Of a stretch of DNA of 337 nucleotides, positions 1-337 are shown in pieces. Where the stretch lies: the NCBI RefSeq assembly GCF_003334255.1, contig NZ_QOWU01000261.1. The stretch is one strand, 5' to 3'. The number at the start of each line of letters is the position of its first letter. The stretch's first letter is position 1. Made by a program: the position numbers and the translations under genes. Origin of the DNA: Escherichia coli. Its GTDB lineage: Bacteria > Pseudomonadota > Gammaproteobacteria > Enterobacterales > Enterobacteriaceae. Below the pieces are notes generated by a model. The model saw only the letters and a list, made by a program, of their open reading frames with translations, was not told the DNA's origin and ran no database searches.

Positions 1-185
1 TCAGCGACAGTCATCTGGTCATGTTCAAACCACGGTGGTTGTCCGTCATTGCCCCGCTGAAGTGTTAACGGGCATCCACAGGACACACAGCACAAAACGT
101 CCTGTCGGTTGTGCTTCGCAGCTTCTTTCGCCGTAACAAAATGGCCTTTGCTGTCATTCGCCATATAACAGTTCAGAATTCGCAT
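1..185 (-). CDS. Partial CDS (N-terminal 61 codons; 3' end lies beyond window position 1). Hypothetical Cys-rich protein, putative zinc-finger N-terminal domain, possibly CoiA-like. Translation: MRILNCYMANDSKGHFVTAKEAAKHNRQDVLCCVSCGCPLTLQRGNDGQPPWFEHDQMTVA...
   Basis: Seen in sequence: ATG at 185-183 (minus strand) sits 4 nt downstream of a perfect AGGAGG (complement of 190-195). The frame stays open for 61 codons to the window edge. Codons such as CTG, GCG, AAA, CCG and CAG are typical of enterobacterial genes (impression from memory, not computed). A CC-x2-C-x-C cluster lies at residues 32-38 (plus 72-92), followed by LxL-x2-G and a W-F-E-H-D motif at residues 52-56 (plus 18-32). Product assignment is inference from recalled family patterns. 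Confidence 0.75.
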   Translation of the reverse strand, partial: MRILNCYMANDSKGHFVTAKEAAKHNRQDVLCCVSCGCPLTLQRGNDGQPPWFEHDQMTVA

Positions 186-337
186 ATTTCCTCCTGAGTT
201 GTCCGGGGAATACTGAATCCTCCGGTCTGGCAGTGTGTGCAGTACTGCTCCCCATAATAATCGTGGTGACATTGTCTGCAGTGCCAGCTGGCTTTACGCA
301 CCACGGGTAAGGCATCCGGTACGAATTGCTGCAGACG
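173..337 (-). CDS. Partial CDS (C-terminal 54 codons plus stop; 5' end lies beyond window position 337). Hypothetical protein with a C-terminal C4 zinc-ribbon motif. Translation: ...RLQQFVPDALPVVRKASWHCRQCHHDYYGEQYCTHCQTGGFSIPRTTQEEICEF*
   Basis: Seen in sequence: the minus-strand frame beginning at 337 is open across the whole 3' part of the window and ends at TGA (complement of 173-175). Codon choice looks like genuine coding (CGT, CTG, CAG, CCG, GTG, AAA). It encodes CxxC-x9-CxxC (Cys codons at plus 278-280, 269-271, 239-241, 230-232) with flanking His residues. It overlaps the downstream start codon by 13 nt in a different frame. Confidence is reduced because no start codon is visible and the region could instead be a 5' leader. 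Confidence 0.55.
   Translation of the reverse strand, partial: RLQQFVPDALPVVRKASWHCRQCHHDYYGEQYCTHCQTGGFSIPRTTQEEICEF
190..195 (-). promoter_or_regulatory. Shine-Dalgarno / ribosome-binding site (AGGAGG) for the downstream CDS
   Basis: Seen in sequence: plus-strand cctcct at 190-195 is AGGAGG on the minus strand, a perfect anti-SD complement, followed by AAAT and then ATG. The 4-nt spacer is at the short end of the functional range. The site lies inside the coding sequence of the upstream ORF (codons Q-E-E). Confidence 0.6.

Follow-up and report, generated by a model that had tools for sequence, protein, structure and literature searches.

CoiA is a PD-(D/E)xK nuclease of Firmicutes that resolves the D-loop during transformation, and its N-terminal finger has been described only as a 'putative C2H2-type zinc finger' (10.1101/2024.02.06.579203). 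In S. pneumoniae the nuclease domain occupies approximately residues 56–209 (PMC1189080). A search of the PDB by sequence found no solved CoiA structure. A CoiA-domain protein has also been validated as an anti-phage system of E. coli (PMC9519451). The genomic setting of the genes considered here has a parallel in the Shigella SRL pathogenicity island, where orf34–orf41 follow the same order as our E. coli ATCC 11775 locus (L001), i.e. phytase-like esterase, IS66, hypothetical, YfjJ-like, Hha and AlpA/Vis-like; the counterpart of the zinc-ribbon gene in that island, orf38, was listed as 'no similarity' (PMC6980539).

The window, by which we mean the whole 337-base stretch of E. coli DNA that was analysed, covers the place at which two paralogous island genes overlap on the minus strand. 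We gave these genes the working names zrA and zrB. Both ORFs are annotated CDSs in E. coli ATCC 11775. The zrA product is 144 aa long and 100% identical to WP_001221615.1, which RefSeq calls a 'zinc-ribbon domain-containing protein', while zrB corresponds to the 133-aa WP_000270971.1 ('putative zinc ribbon protein'). zrA runs past the left edge of the window, and 61 of its 144 residues are encoded inside; the minus-strand translation of 185..1 is MRILNCYMANDSKGHFVTAKEAAKHNRQDVLCCVSCGCPLTLQRGNDGQPPWFEHDQMTVA. Translation of 337..173 gives the C-terminal end of zrB, ...ASWHCRQCHHDYYGEQYCTHCQTGGFSIPRTTQEEICEF, followed by the stop codon. The features of the window are as follows.

1..185, minus strand: 5' part of zrA, codons 1–61 (translation; RefSeq CDS 15153–15587 of L001; Pfam DUF7828)
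183..185, minus strand: ATG start codon of zrA (sequence; homologue starts align)
190..195, minus strand: Shine–Dalgarno sequence AGGAGG of zrA, within the 3' end of zrB (read from the sequence)
173..185, minus strand: 13-nt overlap of the zrB stop and the zrA start (CDS 14764–15165 versus 15153–15587 of L001)
173..337, minus strand: 3' end of zrB, last 54 codons plus stop (translation, RefSeq CDS, Pfam, 31% identity to zrA)
78..89, minus strand: zrA codons for C33-V-S-C36, the CxxC knuckle of the predicted N-terminal zinc finger (invariant in 27/27 family members; aligned to CoiA C26/C29)
21..32, minus strand: zrA codons for W52-F-E-H55 (F53 and H55 invariant; H55 aligns with the final His of HFAH in CoiA)
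215..286, minus strand: C-terminal C4 zinc ribbon of zrB (Zn_ribbon_11), W-H-C-R-Q-C ... Y-G-E-x-Y-C-T-H-C-Q-T-G (Pfam E 8.4e-9, zrB residues 94–126)

No competing plus-strand ORF was found in the window, the longest being 33 aa. Homologues of zrA from other genera have their start at the corresponding Met of the alignment (MR[IM]LKCY...), and the AGGAGG sequence at 195..190 is spaced 4 nt from the zrA ATG. The zrB stop codon, TGA at 175..173, falls within zrA, and hence the two genes overlap by 13 nt. The same tandem order, B-type followed by A-type, and the same 13-nt ATG...TGA overlap are kept in a Klebsiella plasmid (L015 6594–7417, NZ_CP082986.1) when compared with the E. coli pair (L001 14764–15587), and the Shine–Dalgarno sequence is conserved as well. 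As the proteins of the two pairs share only 51–60% amino acid identity, this conservation argues for co-translation and possibly for joint action. From this arrangement we infer that zrB and zrA are translationally coupled via the overlap.

The remaining sequence signals in the region proved uninformative. A promoter and terminator scan together with an Rfam search of the 2.5-kb operon region returned nothing above chance; three terminator-like matches were found in the region, versus 2.3 ± 1.7 expected by chance. One terminator-like hairpin match lies antisense to zrA, at window positions 130–145 on the plus strand (L001 15208–15193), and is probably meaningless. A 19-nt direct repeat, 84% identical, occurs at L001 14903–14921 and 15298–15316, the second copy being window 40..22 on the minus strand. 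This repeat is not a regulatory element; it is the P-W-F-E-H coding stretch common to both paralogues.

Over their full length the two paralogous proteins share 31% identity. Each matches two Pfam models, DUF7828 (PF25165; E 9.3e-31 for zrA and 2.6e-31 for zrB) and Zn_ribbon_11 (PF11682, formerly DUF3279; E 1.7e-18 and 8.4e-9, respectively). In zrA the DUF7828 match spans model positions 2–86 of 87 and, given its E value, is far beyond chance, while the Zn_ribbon_11 match covers model positions 1–36 of 37 at residues 93–128, which lie outside the window. The sequence of zrA is identical to that of a RefSeq protein of wide occurrence, which belongs to an already catalogued Pfam family without assigned function, and in this sense it was already known. 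When 1.84 billion representative proteins were searched exhaustively with a profile, only 211 clusters were found at E ≤ 1e-3, and the representatives of the best 150 of these were all at most 238 aa long, which indicates that the family is narrow and that the members seen are small. Foldseek with the full model against afdb50 was uninformative on remote relatives, as the best 50 matches were all family members. Both proteins were scanned against NCBIfam without a match, and against PHROGs and PADLOC with nothing significant (best E 0.018 and 0.063, respectively). A literature search on DUF7828, Zn_ribbon_11, DUF3279, YfjJ, YagK and Ybl85 did not find a functional study.

Database names for the family vary. 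In UniProt/AFDB many entries, among them B7MMF4 and A0A6N8N922, bear the name 'DNA-directed RNA polymerase, beta subunit/140 kD subunit'; 'Ybl85' is used for others and 'Competence protein' for one. The polymerase name has the appearance of a misannotation that has spread; a marginal profile match to RPB9 is all that we found to connect the family with the enzyme. One member of 238 aa (P0073) carries an extra DUF7828 N-domain fused to a complete protein with DUF7828 and Zn_ribbon_11, and could be a fused tandem pair.

The original prediction, made from the letters of the window, was that the zrA N-terminus resembles the zinc finger of CoiA-like proteins. The motifs on which it drew are all present in the translation: the Cys cluster C32-C33-x2-C36-x-C38, the P-L-T-L-x-R-G stretch as P39-L-T-L-Q-R-G45, and the Gly/Pro linker with W-F-E-H-D as N-D-G-Q-P-P and W52-F-E-H-D56. 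The Pfam model of the CoiA finger itself (CoiA_N, PF25164) matched zrA at only E 0.39; it reached E ≤ 0.1 in 7 of the 27 aligned family members and 1e-3 in none. Direct Pfam support for CoiA_N was thus weak, and the strong link to CoiA came from profile–profile comparison. The first 80 residues of genuine streptococcal CoiA proteins were aligned, and this alignment was compared by hhalign with an alignment of the family N-domain. The comparison gave a probability of 96.7% and an E value of 3.1e-10 over 57 columns. It paired zrA residues C33, C36, H55 and C68 with CoiA residues C26, C29, H47 and C53, and also aligned an A-x-D-x-x-G-x-x-V hairpin and a CG-x-x-L-x-L-x-x-G stretch.

Several controls bear on this result. 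The real score was 53.1, compared with 10.7 ± 2.3 (maximum 19.2) for 200 column shuffles of the CoiA alignment and 9.3 for the reversed CoiA alignment. When all conserved Cys and His columns were masked, the same register was recovered with a probability of 79.7% and E 1.5e-5. Against the C4 ribbon of the family itself, CoiA_N reached a probability of only 16–17%. In the reciprocal direction, a bona fide CoiA (P0215) matches the DUF7828 HMM over residues 1–49 with an i-E of 5e-5, and many streptococcal CoiA proteins carry a precomputed PF25165 match. On the strength of the hhalign score, the shuffle and masking controls and the reciprocal match, we judge from these alignments that the N-terminal finger of zrA is a real, remote homologue of CoiA_N. 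DUF7830 (PF25169) gave a weak cross-match on the same stretch that stayed below significance for zrA (E 0.077), for the five of 27 family members at ≤ 0.1 (best 3.2e-3) and for genuine CoiA (E 0.0038). These DUF7830 cross-matches, from the family and from CoiA alike, suggest a wider set of CoiA_N-like fingers.

zrA therefore carries the N-terminal CxxC ... HFAH type of finger, and its likeness to CoiA extends to the N-terminal beta-hairpin A-x-D-x-x-G-x-x-V, the CxxCG-x-x-L-x-L-x-x-G and [HW]F[AE]H stretches and the next Cys, all in register, with a predicted finger fold common to both. The two differ in that zrA has Trp for the first His of HFAH and in that the spacer from H55 to the last Cys is 12 residues in the zrA family compared to 5 in CoiA. 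Its host and setting also differ from those of CoiA: zrA lies on a mobile island of E. coli and not within a competence regulon, and its neighbours are Gp2, AlpA and IS elements on a CP4-57/SRL-type island rather than competence genes.

Conservation within the family narrows the probable metal ligands. Our alignment comprised 27 diverse intact members with 25–45% identity, all of which match DUF7828. Ten positions are invariant, C33, C36, F53, H55 and C68 in the N-domain and W98, C100, C103, C113 and C116 in the C-domain; C68 falls outside the window. From the invariance across these members, the N-domain metal site of zrA is likely to be of the C2HC type, C33-x2-C36 ... H55 ... C68. The invariant residues fit one C2HC and one C4 site per protein, both of which presumably bind zinc. 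A site in which C32, C33, C36 and C38 all act as ligands was rejected, as only C33 and C36 of these four are conserved. The AlphaFold2 models are confident (pLDDT 87.5 for full-length zrA and 87.4 for the N-domain) and show a small finger rich in beta-structure, then a helix (residues 73–85) and a C-terminal ribbon.

It had also been predicted that zrA is the N-terminus of a CoiA-like enzyme, with a PD-(D/E)xK nuclease beyond the window. The homology of the N-domain to CoiA_N is what speaks for such an enzyme, but the full zrA CDS ends in the C4 zinc ribbon after 144 aa and the AlphaFold2 model contains the finger, helix and ribbon only, with no nuclease fold. CoiA_nuc (PF06054) matches residues 60–193 of the genuine CoiA P0215; zrA has no match to this model and carries Zn_ribbon_11 at residues 93–128. 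The size limit of the best 150 family representatives leads in the same direction, and the next feature downstream of zrA in L001 is an IS66 element. As there is no PD-(D/E)xK domain and the ribbon is followed by the stop at residue 144, zrA is not a member of the CoiA family (COG4469), and we give a hidden nuclease practically no credence. The expectation thus held for the finger and failed for the enzyme: zrA is a CoiA_N-like finger fused to a zinc ribbon in place of the nuclease domain and the C-terminal region of CoiA.

We are highly confident of the resulting picture, in which the window covers the overlapping junction of two paralogues and each protein, approximately 135–145 aa long, consists of two predicted zinc modules without a catalytic domain. 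These are an N-module of approximately 90 residues (DUF7828), with C33, C36, H55 and C68 as putative ligands and with a remote homologue of the N-terminal finger of CoiA in its first 55–60 residues, and the C4 Zn_ribbon_11.

The window was matched in 3759 of 5426 complete E. coli genomes (about 69%), with a median of two places per matching genome and up to seven. Its best place was at least 99% identical in 2789 of 3763 matching E. coli records, and the listed best matches were 100% identical. The family was absent from 50,697 phage genomes. Among 72,556 plasmid records only 28 carried it, including several of chromosome size. No homologue was found in the K-12 islands CP4-44, CP4-57 and CP4-6, and consequently K-12 offers no gene name for them; yoeG and yeeH were rejected as possible K-12 remnants. 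The family was seen here in enterobacteria. Sequences with 97–99% identity occur in records labelled as distant taxa, namely a 'Collinsella sp.' MAG, a 'Veillonella sp.' MAG (P0004) and 'Pseudomonas aeruginosa' (P0034), and most likely reflect contamination or mis-binning. A contig profile search found two loci (L013 and L014), both on E. coli-like contigs in the 'Collinsella sp.' MAG JAIJJM01; a second contig of this MAG carries a more distant relative with 35% identity.

Truncations, frameshifts and chimeric joins affect many of the copies in databases. Clean paralogue chimeras, in which the window sequence is one parent, were seen among P0031, P0033, P0040 and P0054. P0040 combines the zrA N-terminus with the zrB C-terminus, and P0031 and P0054 combine the zrA N-terminus with the C-terminus of a third type. 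The chimeras suggest frequent recombination among island copies in E. coli, or assembly artefacts.

In E. coli ATCC 11775 the zrB–zrA pair lies directly downstream of a gene for an 'inovirus Gp2 family protein' (WP_000221544.1), the product of which is 36–39% identical to YfjJ and YagK of K-12. The island also encodes a GTPase, Ag43, DUF905, DUF932, antirestriction, RadC/JAB, DUF987 and CbeA proteins, the fec operon and many IS elements, and it is riddled with IS elements and pseudogenes. Six independent loci had enough flanking sequence for comparison (L001, L003, L004, L007, L012 and L015); L003, L007 and L012 are metagenomic or draft-genome islands of enterobacterial type, and L015 is on a Klebsiella IncFIB/IncHI1B plasmid. 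A gene of the YagK/YfjJ/Gp2 family (Pfam YagK_YfjJ_C, REP_ORF2-G2P) lies just upstream of the zinc-ribbon gene on the same strand in all six, with an AlpA-family gene between the two in four. On the other side of the module, a DUF932–antirestriction–RadC block is found in four of the six (L001, L003, L007 and L012), usually with DUF987 and CbeA/CbtA. A second Gp2/YagK–YfjJ-like gene lies directly downstream of the zinc-ribbon gene or genes in L003 (6784–7584) and L015 (7493–8059), where they are thus bracketed by two Rep-like genes.

Content beyond the zinc-ribbon gene varies, and includes IS66, HsdR, a MarR-type regulator, HamA with a DEAD helicase, and RND efflux genes; L009, a short contig, has a gene for an OLD-family ATPase downstream. 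The original prediction had called for a look at this neighbourhood for defence genes, and defence-type cargo does adjoin the zinc-ribbon gene in three loci: an HsdR fragment in L004 (6453–7532), an OLD-family AAA_15/TOPRIM protein in L009 (3494–5803), and a HamA/Cap4-nuclease with a DEAD helicase in L012 (9423–12183). In this respect the region beyond the gene looks like the cargo hot spot of P4-like satellites. Because the cargo changes while the linkage to Gp2 and AlpA stays, the zinc-ribbon gene behaves as a conserved core gene next to a cargo hot spot and not as cargo. We conclude that the genes of the family are carried by integrative islands of the CP4-57/SRL type and by a few large plasmids, bordering variable cargo.

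The best explanation as a whole, to which we assign a probability of about 0.5, is that the window encodes parts of a nuclease-free pair of two-zinc-module proteins that serves the Gp2/AlpA module of the island. What the pair does can be proposed only tentatively. The proteins may be non-catalytic, zinc-stabilised binding factors, a role that we regard as possible while holding it well below even odds. zrB and zrA would be translated together by way of the 13-nt overlap and could function jointly; their zinc modules would bind DNA, DNA structures or a partner protein without catalysis; and this binding would serve the Gp2/AlpA module, either in regulation or in Rep-driven excision and replication. 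Two findings count against such a role. The proteins are near neutral (median pI 7.6, net charge about 0–1), which is not what one would expect of a non-specific DNA binder, and K-12 yfjJ and yagK have no zinc-ribbon neighbour, which indicates that a Gp2-like protein does not need a zinc-ribbon partner. An unlikely but more specific version is that zrB–zrA, as a nuclease-free offshoot of the CoiA finger, could form a heterodimeric adaptor for ssDNA, nicks or D-loops, or could partner the YfjJ/YagK Gp2-like Rep, and thereby control excision, rolling-circle replication or mobilisation of CP4-57/SRL-type islands.

The position of the gene at the edge of a variable region, beside HamA with a DEAD helicase, an OLD-family ATPase or HsdR, could be read in another way, namely that the proteins are sensors or regulators of the variable cargo, which is often anti-phage, or act as nuclease-free decoys against CoiA-domain defence nucleases. 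The validated CoiA-domain anti-phage system of E. coli and the antirestriction, RadC and toxin–antitoxin genes on the same island fit such a defence or anti-defence factor. It is nevertheless improbable, about as much so as the adaptor, given that the gene stays with Gp2/AlpA while the cargo changes, that no PADLOC match was obtained, that the family is absent from the phage genomes searched, and that the proteins have no catalytic or effector domain. A two-zinc-ribbon transcription factor of the RPB9/TFIIS type that binds RNA polymerase would share with these proteins two zinc modules and a linker of about 30 residues. In PDB sequence searches with the family profiles, the full-length profile matched RPB9 across both Cys pairs (E 0.0037), and the RNA polymerase name carried by many UniProt entries, an unverified label, points the same way. 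However, this marginal match was the only one in those searches and depended on the two-ribbon spacing; the N-domain alone gave neither an RPB9 match nor a PDB fold match. A zinc-ribbon fold in both modules and homology independent of Cys spacing were thus not found, the likeness appears not to extend beyond the way in which the Cys pairs are spaced, and we consider this kind of factor quite unlikely.

There is even less to recommend the view that the two ORFs are decaying, functionless remnants of a degraded island. The many truncated, frameshifted and chimeric variants and the IS elements and pseudogenes of the ATCC 11775 island are what decay would leave, but the ten metal-ligand and aromatic positions are invariant across genera at 25–45% identity, E. 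coli and Klebsiella share the gene order, Shine–Dalgarno sequence and overlap, and most matching E. coli records contain a nearly identical copy.

These results document DUF7828, with controls, as a CoiA_N-like finger detached from its nuclease, and correct the plausible but wrong expectation that a nuclease was hidden beyond the window. CP4-57/SRL-type islands carry virulence, iron-uptake and defence cargo, and about 69% of complete E. coli genomes contain genes of this family, frequently as multiple copies. If the genes control island replication or excision, this would bear on the upkeep of very common islands and could hint at the role of the CoiA finger; if the adaptor reading were true, it would also show what that finger does in transformation.
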